Below, in pieces: positions 16,131-62,246 of a stretch of DNA of 64,000 nt; the stretch's first letter is position 1; the number at the start of each line of letters is the position of its first letter. The notes beneath the pieces are model-generated. The model searched no databases. It saw only the letters and a list, made by a program, of their open reading frames with translations, and was not told the origin of the DNA. A program made the translations under genes and the position numbers. Source of the DNA: an archaeon (lineage in GTDB: Archaea; Undinarchaeota; Undinarchaeia; Undinarchaeales; JBDRKL01). Location: contig JBDRKL010000004.1 of NCBI GenBank assembly GCA_043814055.1, forward strand, positions 64,001-128,000. Direction: 5' to 3'.

Positions 16131-16964
16131 ATGGACAAACTTTACTTTGGTACAGCAGGCATTCCCTTGAGCACAAAGGGCAAAGGAACTCCTGCAGGCA
16201 TTCGCCGCGTCAAGGAGCTCGGTCTCGGCGCAATGGAGCTAGAGTTCGTGCGCGGGGTTCATATGAAAGAGCCAACAGCAGAGGAAGTGGACAAAGTGAG
16301 AAAAGAAACCGGCATCAAGCTCACGTGCCACGCGCCTTATTATGTTAACTTAAATTCAGAAGAGAAAGCAAAAGTGGAGGCAAGCAAAAAAAGAATTTTT
16401 GAGTCAGCGCGGATTGCTAATATCTGCGGAGCAACTTCTGTTACGTTCCACGCAGCGTTCTATCAGAAACAAGACTCTGAGAAAGTTTACAAGAATGTTA
16501 AGAAAGAGCTTGAGGAAATAATTAAAACCCTGCGCAAGGATGGCAACGATATTGAAATCCGACCCGAGCTTACAGGGAAAGCAACGCAGTTCGGCAATCT
16601 TGACGAGCTCATCCGGCTCAGCCAGGATATTGAAGGCGTTCTGCCGTGCATTGATTTCGCGCACATGTTTGCGCGCACTGGGAAGTTCAACTCGTACGTT
16701 GAATTTATGTCAATGCTTGAAAAGATTGAGGTCAGCCTCGGCAAGAAAGCCCTGCAGAACATGCACTGCCACGTGTCAGGCATAGAATTCACTGAGAAAG
16801 GTGAGCGCAGGCACTTGGAAATGCCAGATTCTGACTTTCATTACTTAGATTTGGCAAAAGCGTTCAAGGACTCTGGGATGCGCGGCATAGTGATTTCAGA
16901 AAGTCCTAATATTGAATTAGATGCTTTGCTGATGAAAAAATTGTATGGTCAATCAGCTCGGTAG
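16131..16964 (+). CDS. nfo: Endonuclease IV (AP endonuclease family 2)
   Basis: HAPYYVNL, FHA, RPE, IDFAH and HCHVSG metal ligands. Confidence 0.88.
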   Translation: MDKLYFGTAGIPLSTKGKGTPAGIRRVKELGLGAMELEFVRGVHMKEPTAEEVDKVRKETGIKLTCHAPYYVNLNSEEKAKVEASKKRIFESARIANICGATSVTFHAAFYQKQDSEKVYKNVKKELEEIIKTLRKDGNDIEIRPELTGKATQFGNLDELIRLSQDIEGVLPCIDFAHMFARTGKFNSYVEFMSMLEKIEVSLGKKALQNMHCHVSGIEFTEKGERRHLEMPDSDFHYLDLAKAFKDSGMRGIVISESPNIELDALLMKKLYGQSAR

Positions 16965-17072
16965 TCCCGCAATGAATCGCCAGAAAATGTAAAAATAATA
17001 TTGCTGACGTTTCATTGCGCCCGCAGCATCATCAAAGTAATGCGGACAGCCATCCTCCGCGACCAGGCGGAG
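16947..17072. mobile_element. Modular palindromic element (family A) at the nfo 3' end
   Basis: GGTAG-hairpin plus core CTCCGC-GACCAG-GCGGAG (17055-17072); flanked by a 17-nt direct repeat, 16930-16946 vs 17073-17089 (1 mismatch). Confidence 0.75.
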
Positions 17073-17090
17073 TGATGAAGAAATTGTATT

Positions 17091-17741
17091 CTATCTAACC
17101 ACTACGTTTCTAGCTACGTGGTAGACCTTGAGTAAAATAGTTATTATTATTCCTGCCAGAGCAATCCAGAGCGCTGTTGTGTAGCTTGTGATTGATATTG
17201 CAGCCAGAGTCAGGTAAGTTACCATAAGCAAGCCAATTATGGAGCCGATTATCACCGCGGCAAATACTCTGCCCTTGTCAAGTCCGATTGCCCTGCCGAG
17301 CAACGATGCCATTACAGCGCCTGTGCCCTGAAATGGTATTATCATCCAAAGCGTACAGCCAGCGAACGACATTCTTTCAACCCATTTATGGATGCCGATT
17401 ATTCTCTTGGTCTGCGTTGTTATCCATCTCGCGTATTTCCCAACTATTTTTGAGTGCTTAAAAAAGTCCAGGCTTGTGTAAAACCCGAGCCCCACAAAGA
17501 AGTCAATCATGAAAAACGAACTCACAACCACTATCGGGCTGAGTCCCATGTATATCCCAAGCGGTATGGCGGACTCCTTGCCAATCGGCGGCAGGAAGTA
17601 AATCGCCATTAGAAAACCAATTTGGCTGAAGCCAATCTCGTCCAGTGAATAATACAGCAGAAAAACCCAGGCAATCATCAGCAGGAAGGGCGTGTACAGC
17701 TTGACGAAAGTGTTAAGGTCTTCTGGACGCGTGAATCTCAT
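17091..17741 (-). CDS. Small multidrug-export-like membrane protein
   Basis: PPIGKESAIPLG and IPFQGTG motifs; multiple TM helices. Confidence 0.75.
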   Translation of the reverse strand: MRFTRPEDLNTFVKLYTPFLLMIAWVFLLYYSLDEIGFSQIGFLMAIYFLPPIGKESAIPLGIYMGLSPIVVVSSFFMIDFFVGLGFYTSLDFFKHSKIVGKYARWITTQTKRIIGIHKWVERMSFAGCTLWMIIPFQGTGAVMASLLGRAIGLDKGRVFAAVIIGSIIGLLMVTYLTLAAISITSYTTALWIALAGIIITILLKVYHVARNVVVR

Positions 17742-17792
17742 ATAATTCCCTAAGTGCAGAACATTTAAAGCTTTTCTTTCCTAATATAAATT

Positions 17793-18203
17793 ATGCCTTT
17801 TGAATATATTGAGCACGAGGCGGACATTGGAATTAAAGGAACGGGCAAGACAGTGGAAGAGGCCTTTGCAGAGGGAGCCAGGGCAATGTTCGGTATTATG
17901 GTTGATTTGGAAAAAGTTGACCCTGTCAAAAGAATTGAGGTTGAATGCGAAGCTGAAAACATCGGGTCTCTTTTTGTTGAATTTCTTAATGCCCTGCTCG
18001 CTCAAGTCAACATTGCAGAAATGTTCTTTTCAAAGTTTGAAGTTAAGATTGACGGTACTCATCTGACTGCAACTGCGTGGGGTGAGCAGATTGACCAGGA
18101 GAAGCACCAGACCAAGATTGAAGTCAAGGCGGCGACTTTCTCTGGGTTGAAGTATGAAGAGAAAGATGGGGTTCACTCAATTCAGTGTGTGGTTGATGTG
18201 TAG
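17793..18203 (+). CDS. Archease
   Basis: FEYIEHEADIG...EVKAAT...VDV; upstream of rtcB. Confidence 0.93.
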   Translation: MPFEYIEHEADIGIKGTGKTVEEAFAEGARAMFGIMVDLEKVDPVKRIEVECEAENIGSLFVEFLNALLAQVNIAEMFFSKFEVKIDGTHLTATAWGEQIDQEKHQTKIEVKAATFSGLKYEEKDGVHSIQCVVDV

Positions 18204-18290
18204 AGTTAACCAAAGGCAATCAAATGGCTTGGTAAAGTCACAGCTTCATTTATTTCTTGTGGCTTGCTCTTCCTCCGCGAGCAGGCGGAG
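18204..18290. mobile_element. Modular palindromic element (family A) at the archease 3' end
   Basis: ACCAAAGGCA..TGGCTTGGTAA-hairpin-TGCTC-core CTCCGC-GAGCAG-GCGGAG (18273-18290); aligns along its length with 48880-48961. Confidence 0.8.
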
Positions 18291-18373
18291 AAGTCAAGGC
18301 GGCGACTTTCTCTGGGCTGAAATATGAGGAGAAGGACGGGGTGTATTCAGTAATTTGTGTTTTGGATGTATAA
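18290..18373 (+). pseudogene. Displaced second copy of the archease 3' end
   Basis: Encodes EVKAATFSGLKYEEKDGVYSVICVLDV* vs EVKAATFSGLKYEEKDGVHSIQCVVDV* at 18120-18203; first 27 nt identical. Confidence 0.92.
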
Positions 18374-18489
18374 TTTTTTTTATAACAATATATAAATACA
18401 TTCAAATTAACAATCGTTAAGTTCACAATTGTTAATACAGCGACTTTTTGAAGAGACATCCAGCGACTCTGGAACTGCTGAACTAGGAG

Positions 18490-18729
18490 GTGATACAATT
18501 GCTCAATGCATTTTTGCTGATAAACACGAAACCGGGAAGGGGGAGAGAGGTTGTTGAGAAATTGTTGGAACACGAGGAGTTTGAAGAGGTAAGGCAGGTC
18601 TACGGCGACTATGACATATTTGGCAAGGTGAGCATATCAAGCATGGATGAGCTGAACAAGTTCCTGCTTGAAACAATAAGGAACATGCCGGATGTTGAGC
18701 TCTCAAACACACTGGTGCAAATGGGCTAA
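18490..18729 (+). CDS. Stand-alone Lrp/AsnC ligand-binding (RAM) domain protein
   Basis: AFLLINTKPG...VYGDYDI. Confidence 0.85.
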   Translation: MIQLLNAFLLINTKPGRGREVVEKLLEHEEFEEVRQVYGDYDIFGKVSISSMDELNKFLLETIRNMPDVELSNTLVQMG

Positions 18730-18764
18730 AATACTTAAATAGCCGGGAGCAACAGAGCTGCGAC

Positions 18765-20207
18765 ATGGACCTTACCTTGAAGCAAACCGAAGAGCTAGTA
18801 TGGGAGCTCCCAAAAACTGGCGAAATGCTTGTTCCTGGAAGAATCTACGGCGACGAAGAAATCGTGAAGCACCTTAACAATGACGTGAAAGCCGGAAAGG
18901 ACTGGAACGCTCTGAAGCAGGTTTACAACGTGGCGTGCCTGCCAGGAATTCAAAAAGCGTCGCTCGCGATGCCAGACGTGCACCCAGGATATGGCTTTCC
19001 AATCGGCGGTGTCGGGGCATTTGACACTGAAACCGGGGTAATTTCAGTTGCAGGAGTTGGCTTTGATATCAACTGCGGAGTCCGGACTTTAAAGACACCG
19101 CTCAAAAAGGATGATGTTGAAAAGAAAAAGAAAGAGCTCGCTGAAGTTTTATTCAGGGTAATCCCAGCTGGACTCGGCTCAACCGGCGACATCCGCCTGA
19201 GCATAGACCAGATTGACGAAGTGCTGGTAAATGGTGCTAAGTACTCAGTAGAAAATGGATATGGCTTAAAGGAAGACCTTGAATTCATTGAAGAAAATGG
19301 AAAAATCGCAAATGCAAATCCTGAGAATGTCTCACGAACCGCGAAGCAGAGGCAGTTCAAGCAGATAGGCACGCTCGGCTCTGGGAATCATTATCTTGAA
19401 GTGCAGTATGTTGATGAAATCTTTGACGAGGTGGCTGCAAAAGCATATGGGCTGGAAAAAGGCCAAATCCTGGTTTCAATTCACTGCGGCTCCCGCGCGC
19501 TCGGCCACCAAATCGGAACTGACTACCTCAAAACTTTGGAAGCTGCGTCAAAGAAATACAAAATCCCAATCCGCGAGAAAGAGCTTGTATGCGCCCCGTT
19601 CACGAGCGAAGAGGGCCAGCAGTACTTCACCGCAATGAACTGCGGAATAAACTGCGCGTTTGCGAACCGCCAGGCGCTTGCTCACTTGACGCGGAAGGGT
19701 TTCACAGAAGTATTTGGTCTTGGAGAAAAAGAAGTTGAAACCTTTTACGAAATCGGGCATAATACCTGCAAGCTTGAGGAGCACGACGGCAAAAAGCTCA
19801 TCGTGCACAGGAAAGGCGCAACAAGAGCGTTCGGCCCTGGGCGAAAAGAAGTGCCGAAAAAATACCGAGAAATCGGCCAGCCAGTCCTGGTCGGCGGGAC
19901 AATGGGGACGTGCTCTTACATACTCCACGGGACTCAGAAAGGGATGGACGAGACCTTCGGAAGCGCGTGCCACGGGGCAGGGAGAAATATGAGCCGCCAG
20001 CAGGCCAAGCGCGAGTACTTCGGGGAAACAGTTATAAAAGAGCTCGCCGCAAAGGGCATAATAATCAAGGGTCATTCAAAGTCCGGAGTTTCAGAGGAAG
20101 CGCCAGGTGCCTACAAGGACGTTACTGAAGTGGTTGACGTAATGCATACTTCAGGAATTGCGAAGAAAGTTGTGAAAGTTAAACCTTTAATATCAATAAA
20201 GGGATAG
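18765..20207 (+). CDS. rtcB: RNA-splicing ligase RtcB
   Basis: MPDVHPGYGFPIGG, DINCG, GSGNHYLE, HCGSR, HRKGAT, HGAGR and EEAPGAYK. Confidence 0.97.
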   Translation: MDLTLKQTEELVWELPKTGEMLVPGRIYGDEEIVKHLNNDVKAGKDWNALKQVYNVACLPGIQKASLAMPDVHPGYGFPIGGVGAFDTETGVISVAGVGFDINCGVRTLKTPLKKDDVEKKKKELAEVLFRVIPAGLGSTGDIRLSIDQIDEVLVNGAKYSVENGYGLKEDLEFIEENGKIANANPENVSRTAKQRQFKQIGTLGSGNHYLEVQYVDEIFDEVAAKAYGLEKGQILVSIHCGSRALGHQIGTDYLKTLEAASKKYKIPIREKELVCAPFTSEEGQQYFTAMNCGINCAFANRQALAHLTRKGFTEVFGLGEKEVETFYEIGHNTCKLEEHDGKKLIVHRKGATRAFGPGRKEVPKKYREIGQPVLVGGTMGTCSYILHGTQKGMDETFGSACHGAGRNMSRQQAKREYFGETVIKELAAKGIIIKGHSKSGVSEEAPGAYKDVTEVVDVMHTSGIAKKVVKVKPLISIKG

Positions 20208-20223
20208 GGGGTGAAAAAAAATT

Positions 20224-20322
20224 ATGCAGGACGATGATGAAGATTATCCAAGGGATCTTGAGGATCTAGATGACCTGGAAAACCTGGATGATGTAACCGA
20301 CCCATGCGACGGTTCTATTTAA
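20224..20322 (+). CDS. Putative 32-aa acidic micro-protein
   Basis: MQDDDEDYPRDLEDLDDLENLDDVTDPCDGSI*, preceded by SD-like GGGGGTGA just after the rtcB stop. Confidence 0.5.
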   Translation: MQDDDEDYPRDLEDLDDLENLDDVTDPCDGSI

Positions 20323-20442
20323 TAAAATTCTCTGCGCGGGCAGTTGGCGAAGTTTAATATTCAATTACTTCGGAGTAGCCGGCGCTAACAATAGCTCCAA
20401 AGCAAGATTTATTAATTACTACTGCTCATTCCTACTGAAACC

Positions 20443-21084
20443 ATGATAAAGTCAATAAAAAACTTTATGTTCAGGATGTCCGCGACCCAGATAATCGCAG
20501 GCATCATCCTATTGGCATCCGTCCTCATATTCGTGCTTTTCTCTGCAATATCATCCGCCTCAGGCATTGGCAGCCATCCGATATTTGGGTTTCTCCTGCT
20601 CTGTTTTCTGCTCCTGCTCACGCGGCTTTCAATCCTTGTCAAGGTCGGAATCGGGTTTGTGAACATAATACTCCTCCCTGTAACAATGTATTATGGCCTA
20701 CTACCTGCGTTTGCAATGATACTCCTTACCAGCTACATTTACATAAAAATCGCGACCAGGCCAACCCCGATTGACTTCTTAATCACAAAGGGCGTGCAGG
20801 GCGCAATCGCCCAGTCAATTTACTTCTCAATCTGGGTGCTAACTATCCACTTGATGTTCAAGTTTGTGAGCTTTGAGTACTTCTTCATCCACTTGACTTT
20901 CATGTATATGCTCTGCATTGCAATCTACATAATTTACATGGTGCCAGCTCTTCACATTATCGCGCTTGACCCTCTCCCAATCACGCTGGTCAATGGAATG
21001 ATGATGATGGCGGTTCAGTTCATACTCATAACCCTAACCGGGAGCAGCTTTTTTATGTTTGTTAAGTCGCTTGCCGGAGTCTAG
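20443..21084 (+). CDS. Hypothetical polytopic membrane protein
   Basis: About 6 hydrophobic segments. Confidence 0.65.
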   Translation: MIKSIKNFMFRMSATQIIAGIILLASVLIFVLFSAISSASGIGSHPIFGFLLLCFLLLLTRLSILVKVGIGFVNIILLPVTMYYGLLPAFAMILLTSYIYIKIATRPTPIDFLITKGVQGAIAQSIYFSIWVLTIHLMFKFVSFEYFFIHLTFMYMLCIAIYIIYMVPALHIIALDPLPITLVNGMMMMAVQFILITLTGSSFFMFVKSLAGV

Positions 21085-22559
21085 TTGTAGAACCTGCTCC
21101 ACTTGTGGCTGCCGATTGTCGCGCCTATCCAAACCAGAACTGGCAATATTTCAAGGCGGCCTATCCACATCTGGAAAATGAGGACTATTTTTATCAGCAT
21201 CGGCGCGGTTGCGGAAGTTATTCCAGTGCTCAACCCGACTGTTGCAGCAGCTGAAGTTGTCTCAAACAATGAGTCAATGAAGCTGAAGCCATACGCTGTT
21301 ATTATAAGGGTTCCAACAATGATAAAGAGCATATAAATGAAGAAGTACCACGAGACCTGATTTGCCTCCTCCTCTGAGAACACTTTCTTCCCAACTTTCA
21401 GCGGGAGAACCGAGGTCTTCGGCAGGAGGAACTTGTTTATTATCCAGGGCACTGAGCTGAGGAGCATTAGCAATCTTATGATTTTCAGTCCGCCAGCTGT
21501 TGACCCGGCTGACCCGCCGATGAGCATCAATACTATCATAACGCTCTTCACGAAATCATCTGCCAATGCTATGTCCATCGTCGCGTAGCCAGTGGTTGTG
21601 CTGGCGCTCATAACCTGGAAAGCGCTGTGCCGCAGAGGCTCTGGGTCTCCCTGACCCTGCAGGTACAGGGCAAGTATTCCAGTGAACACTATAAATATGA
21701 CAAGCAGAGCCTGCACTTCTCTGCTCTTCGCAAAGCCCCTAAGTTCCTGCCACTTCCAGCCAAGGAGCTTGTAGTGAAGTATGAACGGTATTGAGCCGAC
21801 AAGCATCAATGCCATTATTGCAATTTCAATCCCAACGCTTGAGTAAGCGCCTATGCTCACGGCCTTGATGGAGAAGCCGCCTGTTGAGACAACTGTGAAC
21901 ACGTGGTTGATAGCGTCGTAAAGCGGCATTCCAAGCAGGTAAAGAATGAGCGCCCCAACCGCAGTGTACAATAAATATATCTTTGCCATGTTGCGCACAG
22001 TGTGGTGCACGCTCGGCTCAAGTCGCTCTTCCCTCGCCTCGCCCCTGAACAGGTAAGAAGCTGACATTCCAGGCCCGACCATAACTGTGAGGAAAAGCAC
22101 AACTACGCCTATACCGCCTATCCATTGCGTCAAACTGCGCCAGAACAACAAGCTTAGCGGCACTGCTTCAATATCTGGCAGAGTGCTTAATCCCGTTGTT
22201 GTAAATCCGGACATTGACTCAAAGTAGCTGTTCACAAATGCATCCGCCCCAAGCCCGCCATAGAGCTGCGGCGAGAGCATGTAGTAAGGCGCAGCTCCAA
22301 CCAGCGCCATTATTGCGAAAGCACTGGCACCAAGAACCATAGCCCGGCCAAGTGTCAAATGCCCTCGCTGGTAACGCTTGAACAGCGTGAATCCAAAACT
22401 AAGTGATATCACGGACGCGATTACATAAGGCAAGAACGGCTCACCGTAGTAGACCGCGAGAATAACCGGGAGCAGAATTAAATTGCCTACAACCAGGAGA
22501 ATTATGCCTAGGTAATGCAGTACTGTTGAAGCGAATTCAGGAGTTATCTTGGCTCTCAT
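21081..22559 (-). CDS. trkH: Trk potassium uptake membrane protein
   Basis: FESMSGFTTTG, STGGFS, GGSAGSTAGG and TVGLS pore motifs. Confidence 0.95.
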   Translation of the reverse strand: MRAKITPEFASTVLHYLGIILLVVGNLILLPVILAVYYGEPFLPYVIASVISLSFGFTLFKRYQRGHLTLGRAMVLGASAFAIMALVGAAPYYMLSPQLYGGLGADAFVNSYFESMSGFTTTGLSTLPDIEAVPLSLLFWRSLTQWIGGIGVVVLFLTVMVGPGMSASYLFRGEAREERLEPSVHHTVRNMAKIYLLYTAVGALILYLLGMPLYDAINHVFTVVSTGGFSIKAVSIGAYSSVGIEIAIMALMLVGSIPFILHYKLLGWKWQELRGFAKSREVQALLVIFIVFTGILALYLQGQGDPEPLRHSAFQVMSASTTTGYATMDIALADDFVKSVMIVLMLIGGSAGSTAGGLKIIRLLMLLSSVPWIINKFLLPKTSVLPLKVGKKVFSEEEANQVSWYFFIYMLFIIVGTLIITAYGFSFIDSLFETTSAAATVGLSTGITSATAPMLIKIVLIFQMWIGRLEILPVLVWIGATIGSHKWSRFYN

Positions 22560-23212
22560 TATTTGACCAGTGACTTTATCACATCAGGCGCCGCCTTGCT
22601 CTTTGCGGTTATCCAGAGCAGGTCGCCGGCGTTAAGTGTTTCATCGCCCTGCACTAGTATGATGTCCTCTTTCCTCTCTATCACGACTATTTTTGAATCC
22701 TTTGGCAGCCCGCACTTGTTCGCAGCCTTGCCCACTGCAGGCGAATTGTCAGTCAGGTAAAGCTCAAGAAGCTCCATCTTCCCGCCTGCCAAAGTCACAG
22801 CGGTCTTCGCGCCCTTTAGCCGGAAAGAGTTCATGAAATCACTGACAATTGAGCTTGTTACTGATATTGCACCATCAACCCCTGCCTGTATGAATAGGGT
22901 TTCATTCGCAGGATTATTTACTCGTGCGGCAATTTTTCCAACCTCGGCTTTCTTCGCGAGGTGGCAAATCATCAAATTCACGTTGTCATCGTTGGTCAGC
23001 GCCGCGATCGCGTCCGCGCGGTCTATGCCCGCGTCCTTCATTATCTTCGCGTTCGTGCCGTCGCCCTTGATTATGAGCGCGTCAAGCTCGTCAGCAAGCT
23101 CTTCTGCTCTCTCGTCGTCCTGCTCAATGATTACAACGTCCTCGTTCTCCGCAACGAGCGTCTTCGCTAGAATCTCTCCTGTTTGCCCGCCGCCTACAAT
23201 TATAACGTACAT
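22559..23212 (-). CDS. trkA: Trk potassium uptake NAD-binding protein
   Basis: IVGGGQTG RCK_N domain plus RCK_C domain. Confidence 0.93.
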   Translation of the reverse strand: MYVIIVGGGQTGEILAKTLVAENEDVVIIEQDDERAEELADELDALIIKGDGTNAKIMKDAGIDRADAIAALTNDDNVNLMICHLAKKAEVGKIAARVNNPANETLFIQAGVDGAISVTSSIVSDFMNSFRLKGAKTAVTLAGGKMELLELYLTDNSPAVGKAANKCGLPKDSKIVVIERKEDIILVQGDETLNAGDLLWITAKSKAAPDVIKSLVK

Positions 23213-23307
23213 ATTTCAGCATAAGGAGCTGGATTATAAAAGCTTTTGGCAGATAGAAAGCTATTTATAAACACATTTCTACATATACAACTCACTTAGT
23301 GATTCTT

Positions 23308-23583
23308 ATGCAGCACTCACGAGGATTCCGCGCAAAGTCAAGATACAAGCTCAGTGGAGGGCGATTTTCAATAGCCGAGGCTTTGCAGGAGTTCAAACCG
23401 GGGGACAGAGTTCGTGTAAACATTAATCCAGCTGTGCACAAGGGTATGCCTCACCCGCGCTTTCAGGCGGCGGACGGGTGCGTTGTGGAGAAGCGCGGCC
23501 GGTCCTTCAGGGTTGAGGTCAATATAGGCAATGCGACGAAGCAAATACTGGTAAAACCAGAGCACCTTAAGCCGCTGAAATAG
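23308..23583 (+). CDS. rpl21e: Ribosomal protein L21e
   Basis: SRGFRAKSR...HKGMPHPRF...PEHL. Confidence 0.95.
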   Translation: MQHSRGFRAKSRYKLSGGRFSIAEALQEFKPGDRVRVNINPAVHKGMPHPRFQAADGCVVEKRGRSFRVEVNIGNATKQILVKPEHLKPLK

Positions 23584-23595
23584 GGGGAGTAAAAA

Positions 23596-23934
23596 ATGGT
23601 AGGAAAAAAAATATTATCTCAGAAAGCAGTGCCTCTTGTTGAGGTCCAGAAAATTGTGGAGACCCGCAAAAAAGAGGGCGAGCTCAGCTATGAACAGAAC
23701 CTCACGCTGGAGTACTGCAAGAAATTCGCAAAGCTTAATCAAAAAGATACTGCGGCAGCTATCAAGGAGCTCATTGATCTTGAAAAAGTAACAGAAACAC
23801 ACGCCGTATCGCTCACTGACCTTATGCCAAATAACGAGGGTGAGGTAAAGCTTATTTTTGCCAAGGAACATTTTATCCTTGCTGAAGATGAAATCAGCAA
23901 GATTCTTGAGGTATTAGGCAAGTACAGGAAGTAA
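23596..23934 (+). CDS. rpo4: RNA polymerase subunit Rpo4 (F)
   Basis: ELSYEQ..LEY..KF...DLMP; conserved rpl21e-rpo4-DUF655-rsmA order. Confidence 0.92.
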   Translation: MVGKKILSQKAVPLVEVQKIVETRKKEGELSYEQNLTLEYCKKFAKLNQKDTAAAIKELIDLEKVTETHAVSLTDLMPNNEGEVKLIFAKEHFILAEDEISKILEVLGKYRK

Positions 23935-23935
23935 G

Positions 23936-24601
23936 ATGCCAACTGACGAGAATGCGATTGTTTTGGACTATTTGGCCGAAGGGCGGGCAGACTCAAGCGT
24001 GCCGGGATACAAGCGCGAAAGGCGAGTAGCGCAGGTGCTTGGAATTGATTACTTCAGCCTGCTTGAGATTTCAATCCGCGAAGATGACAGTGCTGCGCAG
24101 GGCGACCACATTTACATCGGCAAGGGAGTGCGCGACAAGGTTCACCACATAATCAGGCGGCTCAACCACAGCGATTTGACCTCAACTGCAAAGGTTGAGC
24201 TTGAATATGTTCTTGAAAAGCTCGTGAAGACGAACGAGGCAAAGTTCGTGAAATTCTTCAACGAGTGCGGGTCATTGACAATGCGCCTGCACAGGCTTGA
24301 ACTGCTCCCTGGCGTGGGGAAGAAGCACATGTGGGATATCACGAAAGCGCGCAGCGTGAAGAAGTTTGAGAGCTTCGCGGACATAGCGGAGCGCGTGAAA
24401 CTGCTCCCAGGCCCAGAAAAGCTAATAGTCAAGAGAATCATATGGGAGCTAAAGGGCGAGGACGACAAGCTCAAGCCGATAAAGTACAAGATATTTGTGG
24501 GCGCGCAGCTTCTGCCTGGTGAGGCTGAAAAGCCAACTGCCAAAGCTGAGGAAAAGGAAAGTGGAGCTAAACCAGCTGAAAACCCTGCTGAATCAGAATA
24601 A
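23936..24601 (+). CDS. DUF655 putative RNA-binding protein
   Basis: IVLDYL...YIGKG.RDK...RLHRLELLPGVGKK. Confidence 0.9.
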   Translation: MPTDENAIVLDYLAEGRADSSVPGYKRERRVAQVLGIDYFSLLEISIREDDSAAQGDHIYIGKGVRDKVHHIIRRLNHSDLTSTAKVELEYVLEKLVKTNEAKFVKFFNECGSLTMRLHRLELLPGVGKKHMWDITKARSVKKFESFADIAERVKLLPGPEKLIVKRIIWELKGEDDKLKPIKYKIFVGAQLLPGEAEKPTAKAEEKESGAKPAENPAESE

Positions 24602-25349: not shown

Positions 25350-25388
25350 TGGAGAAAATATTTAACGAACCCAAACCATACTACAGTT

Positions 25389-25922: not shown

Positions 25923-25937
25923 GTTTTTTGGCAGTAG

Positions 25938-25997
25938 GACAGGAAAGTCATATCACTGAGCCCTGAGGAAATCATAACGCTTTCTGAGTCATTTTAG
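25938..25997 (+). pseudogene. Displaced second copy of the rsmA 3' end
   Basis: DRKVISLSPEEIITLSESF* vs DRKVTQLTPEEVVALAGSWTS*; GACAGGAAAGT identical at 25284 and 25938. Confidence 0.85.
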
Positions 25998-26050
25998 TTA
26001 TTTCGAAAATTTCCGAAAAGTATATAAATCACTATTTTCTACCTCTGCGC

Positions 26051-28378: not shown

Positions 28379-28384
28379 AACAAG

Positions 28385-30600: not shown

Positions 30601-30649
30601 AAACTTATTTAAAGCGCGGTTCTCTAGCTTTCTCAAGGAGGTAATTAAA

Positions 30650-30985: not shown

Positions 30986-31038
30986 GAAATTTTTTAATTC
31001 GGGAATTTATGCCTAGCGTGAGCTGAGGGCTTATTTTG

Positions 31039-31867: not shown

Positions 31868-32095
31868 ATGAAAGCTCCGCCTGGCCGCGGAGGTGGGCCA
31901 CGTCGGGGGATGCTCGCTTCAGCACGCAGCTCGTGCTGAGGCATGCGCTGCGTGTCTCTGCATGCTGGCGCATGCAGATCACTCGATCCCCCATATTGAG
32001 AAAAACATGAAAGCACCAAACACTCCGCCTGGCCGCGGAGGATGGCGTCAGGGGCATTCGCTCCTTTCAGTCGCGAAGCCCCAATAGAGGTTTAG
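31868..32095. mobile_element. Two tandem family-A elements at the nre 5' end (opposite orientation to the other copies)
   Basis: Cores CTCCGC-CTGGCC-GCGGAG at 31875-31892 and 32023-32040, preceded by duplicated nre starts (ATGAAAGC at 31868; ATGAAAGCACCAAA at 32007; functional start 32096). Confidence 0.85.
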
Positions 32096-33298
32096 ATGAA
32101 AGCACCAAATATGTGTATAGCCTGCAAAGGCGCAAGAGCCCTATGCGGCAACGAACGCTGTCCCCTACTCGCAAGAGTAAATGTCACGCCAAAGCTCACA
32201 GGCAGAATTGGAACCGACTTCTTCGGCCCGTCCCCCAGCGTTTTCGTGGGCAGAATAGGCTACCCAAATCTCTATATGGGTCCGCTCGCGACTTTTCAGG
32301 AAGAAGAAAACCCTGAGCTTATGGACACGCCGAGCTCCTGGATGAATATGAGCTATGACAAGATTGTTGAAATGCGCTCAATGCTCATCCGCTCCAAGTC
32401 AGTGCAGAACATTTTCTCAAAATCAAGATTCATTGAAGAGAACCAGGAGCTTGCGCTCGCTGAGCGGCCGACTGATGTTGAGCTGAACTTCTCCCGCGAG
32501 CCAACCTACAAGGTCTCTTTCTCTGACGTGCATCAGCCAATGGGCCCGTCAGCTCCGCTAGAAAAAATGAAAATCACCGAGAACGTGAAGATAAACCGCA
32601 AAGTAGACCGCATAGTTTCAGACGACTTGAAAGCGAACGAGTCAGTGCTCAACCTCTACGACATTGATGTTGACGTTTACAAAATCACCACAATCCTCAG
32701 CTCAGGCGCGCTCGGCCTGGAGCAAAACCAGAAGCTCGTTCCTACAAGATGGAGCATAACCGCTACGGACGATATGGTCGCAAAGAATCTCATTGAGCAG
32801 GTCAAGGACTTCAAGAGCGTGAGTGAGTTCAACGTGTTTGAGTTTGAATACCTCAGCAACCACTTCTGCATACTCGCAATGCCTGGCAACTGGGAGTTTG
32901 AGAACTTTGAGGCCTGGGCGCCGGGCTCGTTCTGGAGCCAGGGTTTGAAGAATACTGCGATTACTGAAGAATACGAATCCTTTGAAGGCCGCAAGAAATA
33001 CGCAACAGAGCAGGGTGGCGGCTACTACGCTGCGCGCCTAGGGGTTGTGGAAGGGCTCAGCGAGCTCAAGCGGCAGGCAAGAATTGTTTCGTTCAGGGAA
33101 ATTTATGAAGGCTACACAGTTCCTCTTGGCGTTTGGGTAGTTAGAGAAGCTGCTCGGAACGCTATGCGCCAGCTGCCTGTGAAATTCACAACCCTAAAAG
33201 AAGCGCTTGCGCACATCAACTCAAGAATGCGAATTGACACGAGTGATTATTTCTCAAAGAGCAGGATTCTGAGGCAGAAGCGGCTTACTGAGTATTAA
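32096..33298 (+). CDS. nreA: Nre family DNA repair protein
   Basis: CIACKG...CP, SVFVGR.GYP, LVPTRWSITA.D, GGYYAAR, C-terminal PIP box QKRLTEY. Confidence 0.92.
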   Translation: MKAPNMCIACKGARALCGNERCPLLARVNVTPKLTGRIGTDFFGPSPSVFVGRIGYPNLYMGPLATFQEEENPELMDTPSSWMNMSYDKIVEMRSMLIRSKSVQNIFSKSRFIEENQELALAERPTDVELNFSREPTYKVSFSDVHQPMGPSAPLEKMKITENVKINRKVDRIVSDDLKANESVLNLYDIDVDVYKITTILSSGALGLEQNQKLVPTRWSITATDDMVAKNLIEQVKDFKSVSEFNVFEFEYLSNHFCILAMPGNWEFENFEAWAPGSFWSQGLKNTAITEEYESFEGRKKYATEQGGGYYAARLGVVEGLSELKRQARIVSFREIYEGYTVPLGVWVVREAARNAMRQLPVKFTTLKEALAHINSRMRIDTSDYFSKSRILRQKRLTEY

Positions 33299-47760: not shown

Positions 47761-47762
47761 AA

Positions 47763-48392: not shown

Positions 48393-48427
48393 GAAGCTTT
48401 ATTAATTCTATAAGACACCATATTACT

Positions 48428-56413: not shown

Positions 56414-57472
56414 ATGAAAGTAAAACTCAAGAATCAGTCAAAAAACTTTCGAACAGTTTGGTTTGAGTCTCCTCAAGTTGTTATGATTGACCAGCCAAAG
56501 CTCCCTTTCAAGTTCGCGATAAAGCGGTTCAAGACCTACAAGGAAACAGCAAAAGCAATTTCTGACATGATTGTGCGCGGAGCTCCTGCAATCGGCGCAA
56601 CAGCCGCATACGCAACTGCGCAGGCAGTGCTTGAGTTCAAGGGCGAGGATGTGAAAAAGTTTGACGATTATATGCGCACAGCGTGCAAGCTCATCAAGTC
56701 TGCGCGGCCGACTGCGATTGACCTCGCGCACGCGACAGACCGAGTTTACAACGCGGTAATCCGCTGGGATAATCTCAAGCAGGCCAAGATGATTGCAGTA
56801 GATGAAGCTGAGAAAATTGCTGATGAGTATATTTCAATGAGCCGAAGAATTGGAGAGCACGGAGCAGAATTAATTCAGCACCGCGCGAGAATTCTCACTC
56901 ACTGCAACGCTGGCTGGCTTGCTACAGTTGATTGGGGTACTGCGCTCGCTCCAATATTTACCGCACATAGGTCCGGGACAAAGCTCTTCGTGTTCGTTGA
57001 CGAGACCCGGCCAAGGCTTCAGGGTGCAAGATTAACTGCTTGGGAGCTCGCGCAGGAAGGAATTGACCACGCGATAATCGCTGACAACGCAGCAGGATAT
57101 TATATGCGCAAGGGTGAAGTGGATATGTGCATAGTCGGCGCGGACAGAATCGCAGCGAATGGCGACGTGGCAAACAAAATTGGCACCTATGAAAAAGCAG
57201 TTGTTGCGAAAGAGCACGGAATTCCATTTTATGTTGCTGCGCCAAAGCCGACTTTTGACTTTGAGTGCAAGACAGGCGATGAAATTCCAATTGAAGAGCG
57301 GAATGAGAATGAAGTTAAGAAGATGTGGGGCAAAGAAGGCATAATAAGTGTTGCAAATCCAGGCTCGCCTGCGAAAAATCCAGCTTTTGACATCACTCCA
57401 TCCAAGTTTGTGACAGGTTATATTACTGAAATTGGGATTTTGAAGGCCAATCAGCTCTCAAAACTTGGTTGA
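56414..57472 (+). CDS. mtnA: S-methyl-5-thioribose-1-phosphate isomerase (eIF2B-like family)
   Basis: DQ.KLP, MIVRGAPAIG, RPTA, THCNAG.LAT..WGTA, ETRP.LQGARLTAWEL, GADRI, NPAFD.TP. Confidence 0.88.
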   Translation: MKVKLKNQSKNFRTVWFESPQVVMIDQPKLPFKFAIKRFKTYKETAKAISDMIVRGAPAIGATAAYATAQAVLEFKGEDVKKFDDYMRTACKLIKSARPTAIDLAHATDRVYNAVIRWDNLKQAKMIAVDEAEKIADEYISMSRRIGEHGAELIQHRARILTHCNAGWLATVDWGTALAPIFTAHRSGTKLFVFVDETRPRLQGARLTAWELAQEGIDHAIIADNAAGYYMRKGEVDMCIVGADRIAANGDVANKIGTYEKAVVAKEHGIPFYVAAPKPTFDFECKTGDEIPIEERNENEVKKMWGKEGIISVANPGSPAKNPAFDITPSKFVTGYITEIGILKANQLSKLG

Positions 57473-57624
57473 TTCTCTTCAAATTTTCACTCTTTTTATT
57501 GCTATTTATTCCCCATATTCATAATAAATATCTTCATAGCGGTTTCACCAAGTTCCAAAACCTGCTTTTCCCAAGGCAAACTTATTTATATACTATATAC
57601 GTACTGATTCCAAGGTGAATTTGA

Positions 57625-60600
57625 ATGGCCCCTAAATTAATGAAAATTGGAATATTAGTTGTACTTATAACACTCTTTGTCGCGCAGGCCGCATACGCGA
57701 ATTGCACATACTCCGGCACAGGGGATTGGATAATTGATTCCACTGAAAGCTGTGCCAATACCAGCGAAGTAATAACCCTTAATGGAAACCTTACTATTAA
57801 TGGAGAACTTAATTTCACCAACGTGACGCTCAAGGTCAATGCAACAACGCAGGGTGGTTTTAAGATATTCCTTAACGGCTCTACAACAAAATTCAATGTT
57901 TTCGGCGGCTCAAACATAACCAACGAGAGTGCAGCCAACAGCTACAACATTACTGTTGACAATGGAACCCTCATAATAAACAATTCAGTTATTGAGATGC
58001 TGAACAACTTAACTCTAAGCAATAGCGCCTTAGCAAACTTCACAAACGTAACTTTCAACAGAAGCAACATAAGCATAGCTGACTCAACCTCAAACCTCAC
58101 TGTAAAATGGTATGTTGACGTCTATGTAAATGACACAAACGGAGTCAACACAAGCGCAACAGTTGTAATAAACGATACTGCCAATAACAATCACTTCTCT
58201 GGTGCGAGCAGTGCCTCAACCGGCATGATTACCCAGCAGGTCCTGCCTGAATTCTGGCGCAATAACGCAACTTGGTATTATTATTCATTGTATAATATAT
58301 CTGCATCCAATGCCTGGGGCAGCAATAATACTACTTTAAACCTGACCTCGGACAAAACAGGCTCAAATAATATTACACTCACAGTTACTGCAGTGCCAAA
58401 CTGCACAATAACTGCTCTAAACACTTCAATAACTCTGCCACCACTCGGCTTGCAGATAGTTGAAGTAAACATTACAAACACAGGCGGGCTTACAGACAAT
58501 TTCACCCTGAATACGTCACTCCCAACTGGGTGGTCCTATGACATTGTGAACAGCACAGTCTATAACATGGTGGCAGGTTCATACACTTCAGCAAACTTGC
58601 GCATAATTGTTGGTTCAAATGGCCAGCCCGACTCAATGCAGACGCTTACCCTCTACTGTTATTCGCACAGAAACGCTGGTGCGTTCAATACCTCTACAAT
58701 GAATGTAACAGTTGACGACGCTCTGGAATATGCAACTATAACTCAAAACGCAACGGACTGGATTGAAGGTAACGAGAGCAGTCAGGGAATATGGGGGCCG
58801 TCAAATTACACAACTGCATGGGTCCTCTGGACTCTGAACACAACCGCAAATTCAAGCATCACAAACATCACGAACACAACCTCAATCTTCAACGCAACCC
58901 AGCACGCAAGCGGTTACTGGCTTGATGATGTTTATGAAAATAATACTACAACTGCCATGGTCATAATCGCATATAAGGAAGCAGGATATGCAAACAATAG
59001 CACCAATGGGAATCTTACTCTAGCTGCAAACTATTTGATGACCCAGGCAAAAGTTGATGCCAACCATGCCTGGCCATCAACAACAAACAATGCTTACACC
59101 ACTGCCGTAATCCTAACAGCACTTTACAAAGAAGGGACCTACAATTCTAATACCAGTGCAATAAATGCAACAAAATGGCTTGTTGGAAATCTGACAAACG
59201 CCTCAACAGGCAATTACACCTATTGGAGCTGGGGTAATAATACCACAAACACCTCTTGGGGAATTTGGGCTACAAAATCCGGTTATGGTTACGGGAACTT
59301 GAATAGTACTGAGCAAACCAAGCGGAATGCAGCAGTACTCTGGCTCAAGCACAACCAATCCAGAGACGGCTACTTCGGCTCCAGCGCAAACATCTATGAC
59401 ACTGCAATGGCTGTAATCGCACTTAAAGCAGAAGGTGTTGCTCTTACTGACACATGGGAAATTGACATTGACAAGAATTTCAGCACAACCTATGACCGCT
59501 ACAATGCCTCGCTTGAGCAGGCAATTTACTGGATATACACGCAGAGAAACACCTCATCCGGCGGCTGGGGACTTTCTCCAACAAGCGCGCTGGGCTCTTC
59601 ACTTGGAACACTTGCTTTAGGCGGCTCTTATGCAACTGTGAGCGGACAAGTTCAGGGCTCTGGGAATGCATCTGGCTTCAACATCACTGGGGTAAATGTC
59701 ACATTCGGCTCATACACTGCACAGACAAACAGCTCAGGTCATTACAAGCTGAACGTGCCTGCAGGCACCTACAGCTGGGATGTAGCTCATATAAACTTCA
59801 CTGCTAACTCAAGCACTGGTTTTGTTCTGGGCAACGGCGAGTCCAGAACTCAAAACATTCTGATGCTGCCAGGGATAAACATTACTGGCTTCTACGGTAC
59901 GGAGGAAACGTCAAACAAATATCTCTCAACAGCTTCTCCTGCAGCCAGCGCTACATACAACATCTCTGCAACCGCTGTCTACAAATACAATACCAGTAGG
60001 GGTGTAAATGGAACCTACTACTACAGCTTAAACGTAAGCACAGTCTCCGGTCCATATGCGTCAAATGCCACAACTGGATATTTCATGCAGGGCGGATTGA
60101 CCGCACCGGCCGTAACCGTACAAACGGCATACACAACCAATCTCTCAATCAATGACTCATACGGAAGCTACGCTGAAACAGCAAAAACTCTTACTGTAAC
60201 AGTTGTAGCAACCGGCGACCCAGCAACTGACTCAAGTGGCGGTCCACCTGGATCCACCTCAGACTACGGCCTTTCATTCCTTGAATACAGCCACGCAATC
60301 AAGCTTGCACAAGGTGAGACCCAAACAATTAAAGTCAAGATAAAGAACTCAGGGACGAAATCTCTTGAAAACGTTGCCCTCTCTATAGTAAGCATAAACA
60401 GCGACTGGTACTCCTCAAAAGTTTCAGGCACCAGCTCTGGAATTGAAGGGATGCTGGACAGCGGGGAAGTAGTGACCTATGATGTCACGTTCAACATACC
60501 TGCAACCGCGGATCCAAAAACCTACTCAGGCACCTGGCGCGTAAAGGACTCTGGGGGCAACGCGCTCGCAGAGAAGGCAATGAACCTGACAATCACTGGA

Positions 60601-61038
60601 ACTGCAGTTACAACTGGTAATGGCACCCAAAACGAAACCAAAATAGGTGGGCTCGGGCTGACCCTGCCGGACATCTCTGGTTCAGGCGTTGTGATTATGC
60701 TTATAATCGTGCTCGGTGGTGCTGCAGCCGGCTTTGTAATCTGGTACAAGTTCTTCCGGATGGTGCCAATCTCAGACATAAAAAAGAACATAACAATGTA
60801 CTCATCGGGCGGCGCCCGCCTTGAGGGTGTTGTGAAGTCCGTGACTGAAACCAAGAAGGGTAAGGTCTTTATGATAGCTGACCACACTGGCAAACTGCAC
60901 GTGCGCTATCCATACTACACAACAATTGAGAAAGGCGACCTGATTCGCTCAAAGGGCGTTATGAAAACCTACAAAGAAGTGCCGTACATGGATGCAGTTG
61001 ACCTGCTCAGAGTTACGGTGAAGCACAAAGGGATGTAG
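57625..61038 (+). CDS. Large N/T-rich surface glycoprotein with alpha/alpha-barrel (QW-repeat-like) and Ig-like domains, TM anchor and cytoplasmic OB fold
   Basis: Signal peptide, very many NxS/T sequons, Q..(S/D)G.W/F repeats, C-terminal TM helix followed by F.I.D.TG.L OB-like domain. Confidence 0.75.
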   Translation: MAPKLMKIGILVVLITLFVAQAAYANCTYSGTGDWIIDSTESCANTSEVITLNGNLTINGELNFTNVTLKVNATTQGGFKIFLNGSTTKFNVFGGSNITNESAANSYNITVDNGTLIINNSVIEMLNNLTLSNSALANFTNVTFNRSNISIADSTSNLTVKWYVDVYVNDTNGVNTSATVVINDTANNNHFSGASSASTGMITQQVLPEFWRNNATWYYYSLYNISASNAWGSNNTTLNLTSDKTGSNNITLTVTAVPNCTITALNTSITLPPLGLQIVEVNITNTGGLTDNFTLNTSLPTGWSYDIVNSTVYNMVAGSYTSANLRIIVGSNGQPDSMQTLTLYCYSHRNAGAFNTSTMNVTVDDALEYATITQNATDWIEGNESSQGIWGPSNYTTAWVLWTLNTTANSSITNITNTTSIFNATQHASGYWLDDVYENNTTTAMVIIAYKEAGYANNSTNGNLTLAANYLMTQAKVDANHAWPSTTNNAYTTAVILTALYKEGTYNSNTSAINATKWLVGNLTNASTGNYTYWSWGNNTTNTSWGIWATKSGYGYGNLNSTEQTKRNAAVLWLKHNQSRDGYFGSSANIYDTAMAVIALKAEGVALTDTWEIDIDKNFSTTYDRYNASLEQAIYWIYTQRNTSSGGWGLSPTSALGSSLGTLALGGSYATVSGQVQGSGNASGFNITGVNVTFGSYTAQTNSSGHYKLNVPAGTYSWDVAHINFTANSSTGFVLGNGESRTQNILMLPGINITGFYGTEETSNKYLSTASPAASATYNISATAVYKYNTSRGVNGTYYYSLNVSTVSGPYASNATTGYFMQGGLTAPAVTVQTAYTTNLSINDSYGSYAETAKTLTVTVVATGDPATDSSGGPPGSTSDYGLSFLEYSHAIKLAQGETQTIKVKIKNSGTKSLENVALSIVSINSDWYSSKVSGTSSGIEGMLDSGEVVTYDVTFNIPATADPKTYSGTWRVKDSGGNALAEKAMNLTITGTAVTTGNGTQNETKIGGLGLTLPDISGSGVVIMLIIVLGGAAAGFVIWYKFFRMVPISDIKKNITMYSSGGARLEGVVKSVTETKKGKVFMIADHTGKLHVRYPYYTTIEKGDLIRSKGVMKTYKEVPYMDAVDLLRVTVKHKGM

Positions 61039-61561
61039 CTCTTCTGCTTGGAGATATTGCAAGCTTTTCAAGTTCGCCCAGTTTAGGGTTTGTGTGCCCG
61101 CATTTCTGGCAGACAAAAACTATCTTGGAATGCTCTGGCCGCCCGTCTATGAAATCCTTGTACCTGTCCTTGATATAATTAAAATATTTCTGAGCCGCAG
61201 CCTCGGTCTTTGCTGAAAATATCATGCTCCACTCAAAATCTCCAAACAACATATAAACATCAATTACTTCAACACCCATCTCAGCAGCAACTTCTCCTCC
61301 TTTGAGTCCGCTTATTATCTTGTTCAGGCCTGCCTTGGTCGGCGGACTGGCCTTGAAAAGAACCATATAAGTGGTCCAGCCCATCTTGGTGCAGTCGGTA
61401 AGCGCTGAATATCCTATTATGACCTGCTCGTCTTCAAGAGCTTTTCTAGTTCGGAAGACTGTACTCTGGGCGCAATTTAATTTTTTAGCTATTGCAGAGT
61501 CGCTCTGCCGCGCGTCTTTCTTTAATTCCTTTAGAACTTTTTCGCGTATTTCATCTTTCAT
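61013..61561 (-). CDS. Lrp/AsnC family transcriptional regulator
   Basis: L.KDARQS...IAKKL....STV....K.LE...VI.GY. Confidence 0.88.
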   Translation of the reverse strand: MKDEIREKVLKELKKDARQSDSAIAKKLNCAQSTVFRTRKALEDEQVIIGYSALTDCTKMGWTTYMVLFKASPPTKAGLNKIISGLKGGEVAAEMGVEVIDVYMLFGDFEWSMIFSAKTEAAAQKYFNYIKDRYKDFIDGRPEHSKIVFVCQKCGHTNPKLGELEKLAISPSRRATSLCASP

Positions 61562-61624
61562 AACTCCACAATTCTCTCAAAACTATTATTTAAAACTTTC
61601 TTTCTATGCGATCCAGTGCATAAT

Positions 61625-62152
61625 CTAATTTCGCGTCTTGCAAACTGCCTTAATCCTTTCAAGGACAAGCGGGTTTTTCAAAACATCCTCGCCCTTCTTT
61701 TTCAAAACTCCAACCCCGCCGATAAAAATCATCTGGTGCGCTCTGGCGAATTTTTCCATTGCTGTTATTGTGCCCTGTATTGAATCCTTGCTCGCTTCTC
61801 CGGATGCTCCTGCAATTACGTTCTTCCCCCTCAGCGAAAGTTTTTGGTACAAATAATTAGTCCTGTCCATAAAGTTTTTCATAAGACCTGAGACATTGTC
61901 AAAATAGCAAGGGCTCCCAAGCACAATCGTGTCTGCCTTTAGCAGTTCAACCTCAAGCGTTTTCATACCATCCCGGATTACACACTTCTTGGTTTCCTGG
62001 CATTTGTCACAGCCATTGCACTGCTTCAGTTTAAGGTCTCTCAGCGCGATGAATTTCCTCTTCGTGCCAAGCTCTTTCATAATCGCCTTGACAAGCTTGT
62101 CAGTGTTGCCGTTCTCCACGGGGCTTCCTGATATGCCGAGTATGTAGGTCAT
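61625..62152 (-). CDS. Iron-sulfur flavoprotein / flavodoxin family
   Basis: ISGSP..NGNT, CNGCDKC...C, GSP.YF..VSG.MKNF.DR; start at MTYILG. Confidence 0.9.
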   Translation of the reverse strand: MTYILGISGSPVENGNTDKLVKAIMKELGTKRKFIALRDLKLKQCNGCDKCQETKKCVIRDGMKTLEVELLKADTIVLGSPCYFDNVSGLMKNFMDRTNYLYQKLSLRGKNVIAGASGEASKDSIQGTITAMEKFARAHQMIFIGGVGVLKKKGEDVLKNPLVLERIKAVCKTRN

Positions 62153-62186
62153 GAGTAAAATGGTTTGGGTATAAACCAATTTGCAC

Positions 62187-62246
62187 GGTAGCGGTGCAGC
62201 ATCACCAATTTGATGCACCGCACTTTCCCTCCGCAAGTAGGCGGAG
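62187..62246. mobile_element. Family-A element abutting the CCA end of tRNA-Gly
   Basis: GGTAG-CGGTGCA..TGCACCG hairpin with loop GCATCACCAATTT as at 48914, then CACTT-core CTCCGC-AAGTAG-GCGGAG (62229-62246). Confidence 0.8.

Follow-up and report, generated by a model that had tools for sequence, protein, structure and literature searches.

Several described systems come close to the element reported here. Prokaryotic MITEs (miniature inverted-repeat transposable elements), such as the SM elements of Sulfolobus, the Correia elements and the Rickettsia palindromic elements (RPE), are small, non-coding, folded and multi-copy, and they lie mostly between genes. The repetitive extragenic palindromes and bacterial interspersed mosaic elements (REP/BIME) with their associated tyrosine transposases (RAYT), and the insertion sequences (IS) IS200/IS605 with their miniature derivatives, have hairpin ends, fold as single strands and carry a guide at the foot of a hairpin that pairs elsewhere. 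In addition, short interspersed nuclear elements (SINEs) and other target-primed elements leave variable duplications, show microhomology and extra bases at their junctions, and have an affinity for tRNA sequence. Here we analyzed a 64,000-nucleotide stretch of DNA (the window; positions 64,001 to 128,000 of contig JBDRKL010000004.1, assembly GCA_043814055.1) from an archaeon of the Undinarchaeota, in which an earlier note had described a dispersed palindromic motif, CTCCGC-N6-GCGGAG, next to duplicated ends of host genes. We found that this motif is the 3' end of a modular element of 55-130 nt that folds through a covarying pseudoknot and is commonly flanked on both sides by the same piece of target DNA. 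The reading that we favor, with somewhat less than even confidence, is that the family is a non-autonomous, homology-guided, replicative mobile DNA element of a new kind. A literature search, conducted mostly at the level of abstracts, returned no description of such an element.

The genome holding the window is that of a small-genome archaeon and is a draft, metagenome-assembled genome of 979,685 bp in 14 contigs that is 82% complete. The motif was matched 8 times in the window compared to 0.01 expected, a number reached in 0 of 100 shuffles, and these matches are exactly the eight cores reported before, at 17055, 18273, 31875, 32023, 48730, 48824, 48944 and 62229. Across the genome there are 26 exact copies. 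When up to two substitutions were allowed provided that the stem stays paired, 41 candidate cores were obtained, including compensatory variants such as CTCCGG..CCGGAG and GTCCGC..GCGGAC; two of the 41 (on contig C4 at 47220 and on contig C12 at 19977) resemble chance matches within genes. A covariance model built from the short form of the element detected 43 copies at E<=0.01. The whole-genome scan and the covariance model had both been proposed in the earlier note, and its picture of a dispersed, modular and non-coding element was borne out. One copy (C9:26243-26298, locus L149) lies in frame in a gene of the SRP54 family (FtsY type), within the part that encodes the acidic N-terminal region, where the element and its duplicate together add about 60 nt to the frame with no stop. 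Another copy (C12:3743-3798, locus L080) stands just 3' of a stretch that matches archaeal RNase P RNA in part (48.6 bits, the match being clipped by the end of the locus).

When each copy is turned to place its variable hairpins on the 5' side of the core, the element consists, from 5' to 3', of optional hairpins, a conserved hairpin B or A, a loop complement of 4-6 nt, a 3-nt linker and the terminal hairpin formed by the core. The minimal form, about 55 nt long, contains only hairpin B, the loop complement and the core hairpin, and longer copies have an extra 5' hairpin and a module-A hairpin (~86-91 nt) or further nested modules. In hairpin B, TTC...GAA is invariant, one pyrimidine is bulged and the outer stem covaries. 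The two ends differ, the 5' end being hairpin B, hairpin A or another module and the 3' end being the CTCCGC hairpin, and they are not inverted copies of each other. The loop complement matches, in reverse complement, the bases with which the core loop begins and always lies 3 nt from the core, giving a pseudoknot. As a perfect match of at least 4 nt, it was found for 42 of the 52 cores taken from four genomes, in one of the two orientations, compared to a chance of about 1/256 per orientation (binomial test), and at least 12 different covarying versions occur. Among 32 sequences oriented by the flank duplicate, and hence independently of pairing, each of four pseudoknot pairs showed 11-14 double-sided changes, and 89% of the pseudoknot cells were paired, compared to 37-48% when the partner was slid. 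In the 21 short-form copies, the whole structure is 95.5% paired and 13 of its 21 pairs have a compensatory change, and the observed covariation score was reached in 0 of 500 shuffles. Of 441 cells, 418 hold Watson-Crick pairs, 3 hold G-T and 2 hold A-C, and there is no strand bias. Since the pairs are almost exclusively Watson-Crick, we read the fold as one of DNA, and this suggests selection on a DNA-level rather than an RNA structure. The use of G-U asymmetry to assign the folded strand was dropped because no asymmetry was found. In Rfam, no family matched the element, whether the window was searched at the gathering score or 20 element loci at E<=1. Should one of the more ordinary explanations weighed below be right, the family would still be a previously undescribed repeat whose structure has strong support from covariation.

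To score flank duplicates, the 45 nt following each core were aligned to the 260 nt preceding the element's core, and a duplicate was called when the score was 12 or more and the copy began 1-7 nt past the core; in 400 mismatched control pairs the 95th percentile of the score was 10. By this test a duplicate stands beside 27 of the 41 candidate cores. The second copy begins just after the terminal hairpin and repeats the flank from the other side of the element, and the duplicates are 7-92 nt long, many pairs being identical and others diverged. For roughly 21 of 39 copies, a genome-wide BLAST search with the 45 nt after the core returned a match on the far side of the element, within ~350 nt, and in most of these it was the best non-self match. 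The pseudoknot and the duplicate each indicate an orientation, and the two were in agreement in 20 of 21 cases (p=1e-5). In three other genomes, duplicates were found at 4-5 of 11 exact-core sites and at 10 of 20 sites picked by the covariance model alone. The excess of gene-end duplications next to the core that was first seen in the window thus holds both genome-wide and in other assemblies, as does the observation that these duplications vary in length and that their targets share no consensus.

A broader scan of the same genome for direct repeats that are exact and local (14 nt or longer, with a spacer of 40-260 nt) returned 73, and 28 of them enclose spacers that fold below the 5th percentile of background. 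Fifteen of these folded spacers have a CTCCGC-type core and 13 have other terminal hairpins. Flank duplication is therefore a property of several hairpin module types, and the CTCCGC element is the largest member of a broader set that inserts in the same way. Gene ends are probably not the target as such; they would dominate as a survivorship effect in a compact genome, because insertions survive only where the duplication restores the gene. Some junctions look like completed quasi-palindromes (GGAG-AG-CTCC and GTTC-G-GAAC), which is a signature of template switching according to one report (PMC5677150).

The genome has 40 tRNA genes, and 16 of 39 copies are found no more than 300 nt from one of them; the junctions in these genes are unevenly distributed. 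At tRNA 3' ends the uninterrupted duplicate starts at positions 53-59 (T-loop) in 8 of 9 cases, at 5' ends it stops at positions 9-18 (D-arm) in 8 of 8 cases, and no junction in the tRNA cases falls at the anticodon loop; the T-loop and D-arm junctions correspond to the two sequence blocks common to all tRNAs. The bases just after the hairpin are often an altered version of the tRNA block, and this version is shared among different loci. At five tRNA loci in two genomes of a sister family the prefix is GTTCGGAAC or GTTCGGAGC, compared to native T-loops of GTTCAAATC, GTTCGAATC or GTTCGAACC; similarly, GTTCCYAAATCC is common to two tRNA-Leu genes and a tRNA-Tyr gene, and AGCTCCACGGGCCCA is common to two tRNA 5' ends. 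At two tRNA-Leu loci the duplicates are nearer to each other than to their own genes, and past the shared prefix both copies carry the local flank. Judging from these sequences, a short piece of an earlier target therefore seems to travel with the element and to guide its re-insertion, while the rest is copied from the new site. The earlier note had proposed that the element re-enters as a circle or cDNA (complementary DNA) through a captured gene end. The captured flank as a guide is in agreement with the shared prefixes, the tRNA-Leu duplicates and the allele-like coding copies described below; a simple circle with a single crossover does not fit the tRNA cases, because it predicts the old flank beside the 5' end of the element, and this is not seen. 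The CCA position is occupied by TTA, TCA or CTA in four duplicates. As a separate observation on these genes, introns are present in 18 of the 40, and 13 of them are 42-193 nt long (106 nt in tRNA-Gly and 193 nt in tRNA-Trp); the long introns, including those of the window genes at 62247-62427 and 53547-53664, are built of the same kinds of hairpin modules as the intergenic DNA. Also, the 5' end of tRNA-Glu(TTC) (reverse complement ACACCACCGGGGCA) occurs three times in a row at C12:18380-18488, with 74- and 68-nt spacers that fold only moderately.

When the duplicates of coding ends at five loci were compared, 47 nucleotide differences were found, of which 11, 8 and 28 fall at the first, second and third codon positions, respectively. 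The differing codons comprise 24 synonymous and 13 non-synonymous ones, and there are three stop-to-stop changes. This codon pattern points to the coding duplicates being diverged functional alleles, since in-place decay of a dead copy cannot give a synonymous-biased pattern. Two histories would account for it: the element may have brought along a gene end from a different lineage, or one of the two copies may later have been replaced through homologous exchange reaching no further than the element.

The copies in the window, where gene names were verified with Pfam, illustrate these features. Copy 1 (16947-17072, plus strand) has a module-A hairpin with a nested insert followed by the terminal hairpin (17055-17072), and it sits at the 3' end of an nfo-like apurinic/apyrimidinic (AP) endonuclease gene, whose end is found on both sides (16930-16946 and 17073-17089, 16 of 17 nt identical). 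The nfo-like (AP-endonuclease-2) frame extends 18 nt into the element (16947-16964) and ends at an internal TAG, so that its last 5 codons and stop are now inside the element, and what looks like its ancestral end (..KKLYSI*) is kept in the duplicate downstream. The statement that the host gene is always left intact is thus not correct for this gene. Copy 2 (18204-18290, plus strand; 87-88 nt) contains a 5' hairpin, a module-A hairpin, the pseudoknot and the terminal hairpin (18273-18290), and lies between the archease 3' end (18121-18203) and a diverged copy of it (18291-18373), which differ at 18 of 83 nt and both end with the stop codon. Two copies on the minus strand are found at the start of nre. 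Copy 4 (32021-32095; bulged hairpin B and terminal hairpin 32023-32040) sits between the real start of the gene (32096-32109) and an exact 14/14-nt copy (32007-32020), and copy 3 (31875-32006; terminal hairpin 31875-31892 and several other hairpins) is followed after the terminal hairpin by ATGAAAG of the nre start (31868-31874). Among the gene-end duplicates that had been listed beside the window cores, those of nfo, archease, the sRNA (small RNA) and the 14-nt nre copy were all recovered, and this 7-nt nre repeat is weak on its own.

Three further copies, all on the plus strand, follow a small RNA gene at approximately 48431-48492 (plus strand), which we take to be of the C/D box type from boxes labeled by eye; it has no Rfam match and is the source of all of the sRNA-end copies. 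Copy 5 (48611-48753) has several hairpins, the terminal hairpin (48730-48747) and a 6-nt filler, and is flanked by sRNA 3'-end copies at 48588-48610 and 48754-48776. Copy 6 (48777-48841) is a short form with bulged hairpin B, a pseudoknot with a 6-nt complement and the terminal hairpin (48824-48841), directly followed by an sRNA-end copy (48842-48855). Copy 7 (48856-48961), with a 5' hairpin, a module-A hairpin and the terminal hairpin (48944-48961), belongs to a 120-nt tandem unit and is likewise directly followed by an sRNA-end copy (48962-48975). The earlier note had listed three sRNA-end duplicates beside cores, and these start at 48754, 48842 and 48962; the sRNA that it had placed at 48575-48604 is itself a duplicate. 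A 61-nt hairpin module of another kind, without the CTCCGC core (48493-48553, plus strand), is bracketed by an exact 48-nt duplication, one copy being the end of the real sRNA (48445-48492) and the other lying at 48554-48601. A ninth related element (48976-49085, plus strand) has 5' and module-A hairpins and a different terminal hairpin (49063-49081); alternative terminal cores of this sort were also seen beside tRNA-Ser(GGA) on contig C10 and in another genome (G010). Finally, copy 8 (62170-62246, plus strand), with a module-A hairpin, the pseudoknot ACTT/AAGT and the terminal hairpin (62229-62246), has its last nucleotide (62246) directly next to the CCA end of a tRNA-Gly gene that contains an intron (62247-62427, minus strand), and no flank duplicate was found there.

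Within 17 genomes of the phylum set scanned with the covariance model, three genomes of a sister family had 18, 13 and 6 copies at E<=0.01, two genomes of a third family had one weak match each, and the other 10 had no match at E<=0.01. Archease served as an anchor to look for relatives; the best match among genome contigs was 58%, in a record labeled Methanosarcinales, and the nearest archease loci were in records labeled Nanoarchaeota, Woesearchaeota and similar. Viral carriers were considered on the basis of 12 and 4 exact matches to two core variants, but all of these lie in DNA of 56-72% G+C and are without the upstream hairpin or the complement, and we read them as chance hits in coding sequence.

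As for an enzyme, the earlier note had stated that none is found near the element in the window, and this was confirmed; the surroundings of the densest cluster of copies (C10, 134-141 kb) encode a DEAD-box helicase, serine hydroxymethyltransferase (SHMT) and unnamed small open reading frames, and no transposase-like gene. The same note had suggested an HUH/rolling-circle-like or target-primed joining. In four carrier genomes, each 78-82% complete, there was no match to Y1_Tnp (PF01797), RVT_1 (PF00078), Prim-Pol, or DDE_Tnp_1 (PF01609) and rve (PF00665), the last two with positive controls that gave matches. Cas1 (PF01867) was absent from all four and present only in the non-carrier genome G009. 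The best Phage_integrase (PF00589) match scored 14.4 bits against a cut-off of 27.1 and contains an internal stop (C4:139485-139730), and the TnpB-type zinc ribbon (PF07282) gave only sub-threshold matches of 16.5 and 14.7 bits. Y2_Tnp (PF04986) was not found in the four carriers, but its control also matched in 0 of 14 reference genomes. For the Y1, RT and integrase types the carriers thus gave no support. The absence of an enzyme is weak evidence when taken from one genome of 78-82% completeness and stronger when taken from four. In the genome holding the window, at 82% completeness, no tyrosine recombinase above the cut-off was found, which would include an XerA-type enzyme, and no IS-type transposase family was detected.

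The mechanism that we propose is inferred from end products only. A single strand ending in the terminal hairpin and a few nucleotides of the previous target would pair, through this short guide, with a similar sequence, for instance the T-loop or D-arm box conserved among tRNA genes, or the end of the same gene in a related cell. The paired strand would then be extended on the new target, and the 5' end of the element would be joined to DNA already copied beyond that point. Because of this joining past the copied stretch, the target segment between the two points (7-92 nt) would come to lie on both sides of the element, with the second copy abutting the terminal hairpin. The work would probably be done by host replication and repair enzymes, for example through template switching at a stalled fork or through a structured flap that escapes processing, or alternatively by a factor acting in trans, and insertions would survive where the duplication regenerates an intact gene end. 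In its strongest form, which we regard as possible but doubtful, the proposal is one of transposase-free, self-propagating folded DNA that takes along a few nucleotides from the target it last occupied, finds a similar site with them as its guide, and is written into that site by the replication machinery of the host, with the target duplicated in the process. The target range would in that form be set by the carried sequence, with tRNA boxes serving within a genome and orthologous gene ends between lineages.

Several observations weigh against a homology-guided DNA element of this kind. Fourteen of the 41 cores have no clear duplicate, two of which abut a tRNA CCA end with none. In the archease duplicate, the 26 nt next to the hairpin are identical and the divergence lies further out, which is the opposite of what a carried guide and a local copy would give, and a second process, homologous exchange with another lineage, is therefore needed. 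The conserved TTC..GAA and the bulge of hairpin B suggest a specific protein partner, which copying by a host polymerase would not need, and an enzyme could be supplied by an unbinned plasmid, a virus or a host cell. All 13 genomes of the order encode both Fen1 and RNase HII; the carriers thus have no obvious replication defect, and the idea that they lack either enzyme was ruled out. Comparison with relatives showed no empty or polymorphic site; metagenome loci anchored on archease had at best 56-57% identity and no element, and in a search for empty sites within the sister genus only the element aligned as DNA (75-89%) and the flanks did not.

An ordinary MITE-like non-autonomous transposon, whose folded ends are recognized by a transposase from elsewhere (a plasmid, a virus or the host cell) that makes cuts of variable stagger followed by gap repair, is in our view unlikely. 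It would account for flanking direct repeats that act like target-site duplications, many of them identical, and for TTC..GAA and the bulged base of hairpin B, which resemble a protein recognition site, and the carriers being only 78-82% complete leaves room for the missing enzyme. However, the element has no terminal inverted repeats, its two ends being different hairpins, and six enzyme families are absent from the four carriers. To our knowledge, no transposase family gives duplications of 7-92 nt. Moreover, staggered cuts would not give junctions clustered in tRNA boxes or shared altered prefixes, so that the prefixes and the diverged copies would have to come from later gene conversion and from homologous exchange between lineages. 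Variable duplications are typical of target-primed reverse transcription, and this is one of the points for an RNA-mediated, SINE- or retroplasmid-like route, which we consider quite unlikely. Under this explanation a transcribed element with a pseudoknotted 3' end mimicking a tRNA acceptor arm would be used by a reverse transcriptase (RT) acting in trans, the RT would switch to or be primed by host RNAs or nicked DNA, and the hybrid cDNA would enter by homology. The tRNA 3' duplicates start at 58-59, or have a scar at 57/58 and stop at 53, and these are the positions where archaeal 1-methyladenosine (m1A57/58) would block copying; a homologue of TrmI is present. About 22 of the 40 tRNA genes encode CCA, and a module or element lies within ~30 nt downstream of 16 of these 22 compared to 5 of the 18 CCA-less genes (classed by eye; Fisher p=0.01), with two copies exactly abutting the CCA end. 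In addition, the RT of the Mauriceville retroplasmid initiates at tRNA-like 3' ends and at tRNAs, as stated in PMC9925561. Yet RVT_1 was found in 0 of 4 carriers, 3 G-U pairs in 441 cells without strand bias are unlike functional RNAs, the duplicates of the 5' class take in promoter DNA that is not transcribed, approximately 40% of copies are antisense to or divergent from both neighbors, and the gene-side archease duplicate ends at the stop codon and not at a transcript end.

It is improbable that the sequence is a non-mobile cis-element of the host (acting as a terminator or as a site for processing or protein binding) that spreads by slow gene conversion and whose hairpins provoke slippage that duplicates the neighboring DNA. 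Hairpins do provoke template switching (PMC5677150), other hairpin modules also lie between local duplications (13 of 28 folded spacers), and there is one 120-nt tandem unit. Slippage, however, would yield tandem units of flank plus element and not the order flank-element-flank, and the copies occur in both orientations to genes, inside the ftsY-type frame and at ~40 unrelated sites, with copy numbers that vary widely between families of one order (43, 18, 13, 6 and 0-1). Finally, an artefact in which repeats were mis-joined during assembly might be suspected in a 14-contig, metagenome-assembled draft, but the same architecture is present in four separate assemblies, many duplicates have diverged in a codon-aware manner and genes stay intact, and this explanation is extremely improbable.

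If the favored reading, that of a homology-guided DNA element, is true, DNA would be mobile without an element-encoded or recognizable transposase, with the choice of target programmed by a captured piece of the previous target. This would explain how very small genomes of symbiotic archaea without IS elements hold dozens of repeats, how tRNA genes come to have structured flanks and perhaps their unusually long introns, and how gene ends are exchanged between lineages. The element is small, and the rules that it follows (a defined fold, a 3-nt linker of fixed length, a junction at the foot of the hairpin and a guide) can be spelled out, so that synthetic DNA and purified archaeal replication proteins offer a direct test of the hypothesis. 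Under the ordinary rivals too, the family points to an enzyme or a protein partner.

Comparison with known systems places the element near several of them. Bulge-helix-bulge (BHB) introns, known self-cleaving ribozymes, the kink-turn (K-turn), integron attC sites and the template/variable repeat pair of diversity-generating retroelements (DGRs) were set aside by eye because strand order, conserved bases or enzymes did not match. Integration of the casposon or CRISPR type depends on Cas1, which the four carriers lack. The integrase-borne elements of archaeal viruses and plasmids also leave the tRNA intact and repeat its 3' part from the T-arm on beyond the insert, but they are kilobases in size with their own integrase and one att site, whereas the present element has ~40 targets without a shared core. 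IS91 and the IS common regions (ISCR), together with Helitrons, have a 3'-terminal hairpin, one sharp and one loose end, and capture of flanking DNA; unlike the element, they capture the flank of the donor and do not duplicate the new target. They depend on a Y2/Rep enzyme. MITEs are occasionally found in frame within genes, as is the copy in the ftsY-type gene, but the element differs in having no terminal inverted repeats and duplications of 7-92 nt instead of a fixed short length, and, unlike MITEs, it has no parent IS or DDE transposase in the four carriers. Compared to SINEs, it is without an RT that could be found and without an A-rich tail, its pairing is Watson-Crick only, and its duplications reach 84-92 nt. 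The Mauriceville and Varkud retroplasmids resemble it in that their 3' end is structured and that they capture tRNA sequence and re-enter by way of that homology, but they are kilobase-size mitochondrial plasmids that encode their own RT, and the element is 55-130 nt and encodes none. Template-switch mutations, and flap-derived duplications in FEN1/rad27 mutants, likewise complete quasi-palindromes and produce duplications bounded by short repeats at hairpin-prone DNA (PMC5677150); those mutations are sporadic, whereas the element is a propagating sequence family in an order in which 13 of 13 genomes have Fen1.

REP/RAYT and IS200/IS605 systems do not duplicate their target and need a Y1 HUH enzyme; the element has a duplicate at 27 of 41 cores, and Y1_Tnp is absent. 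The IS200/IS605 guide pairs with the cleavage site, whereas the 4-nt partner in the element is the hairpin's own loop. Subterminal hairpins that fold in single-stranded DNA, as in IS200/IS605 and REP/RAYT elements, are present in the element, as covarying, Watson-Crick-only hairpins.

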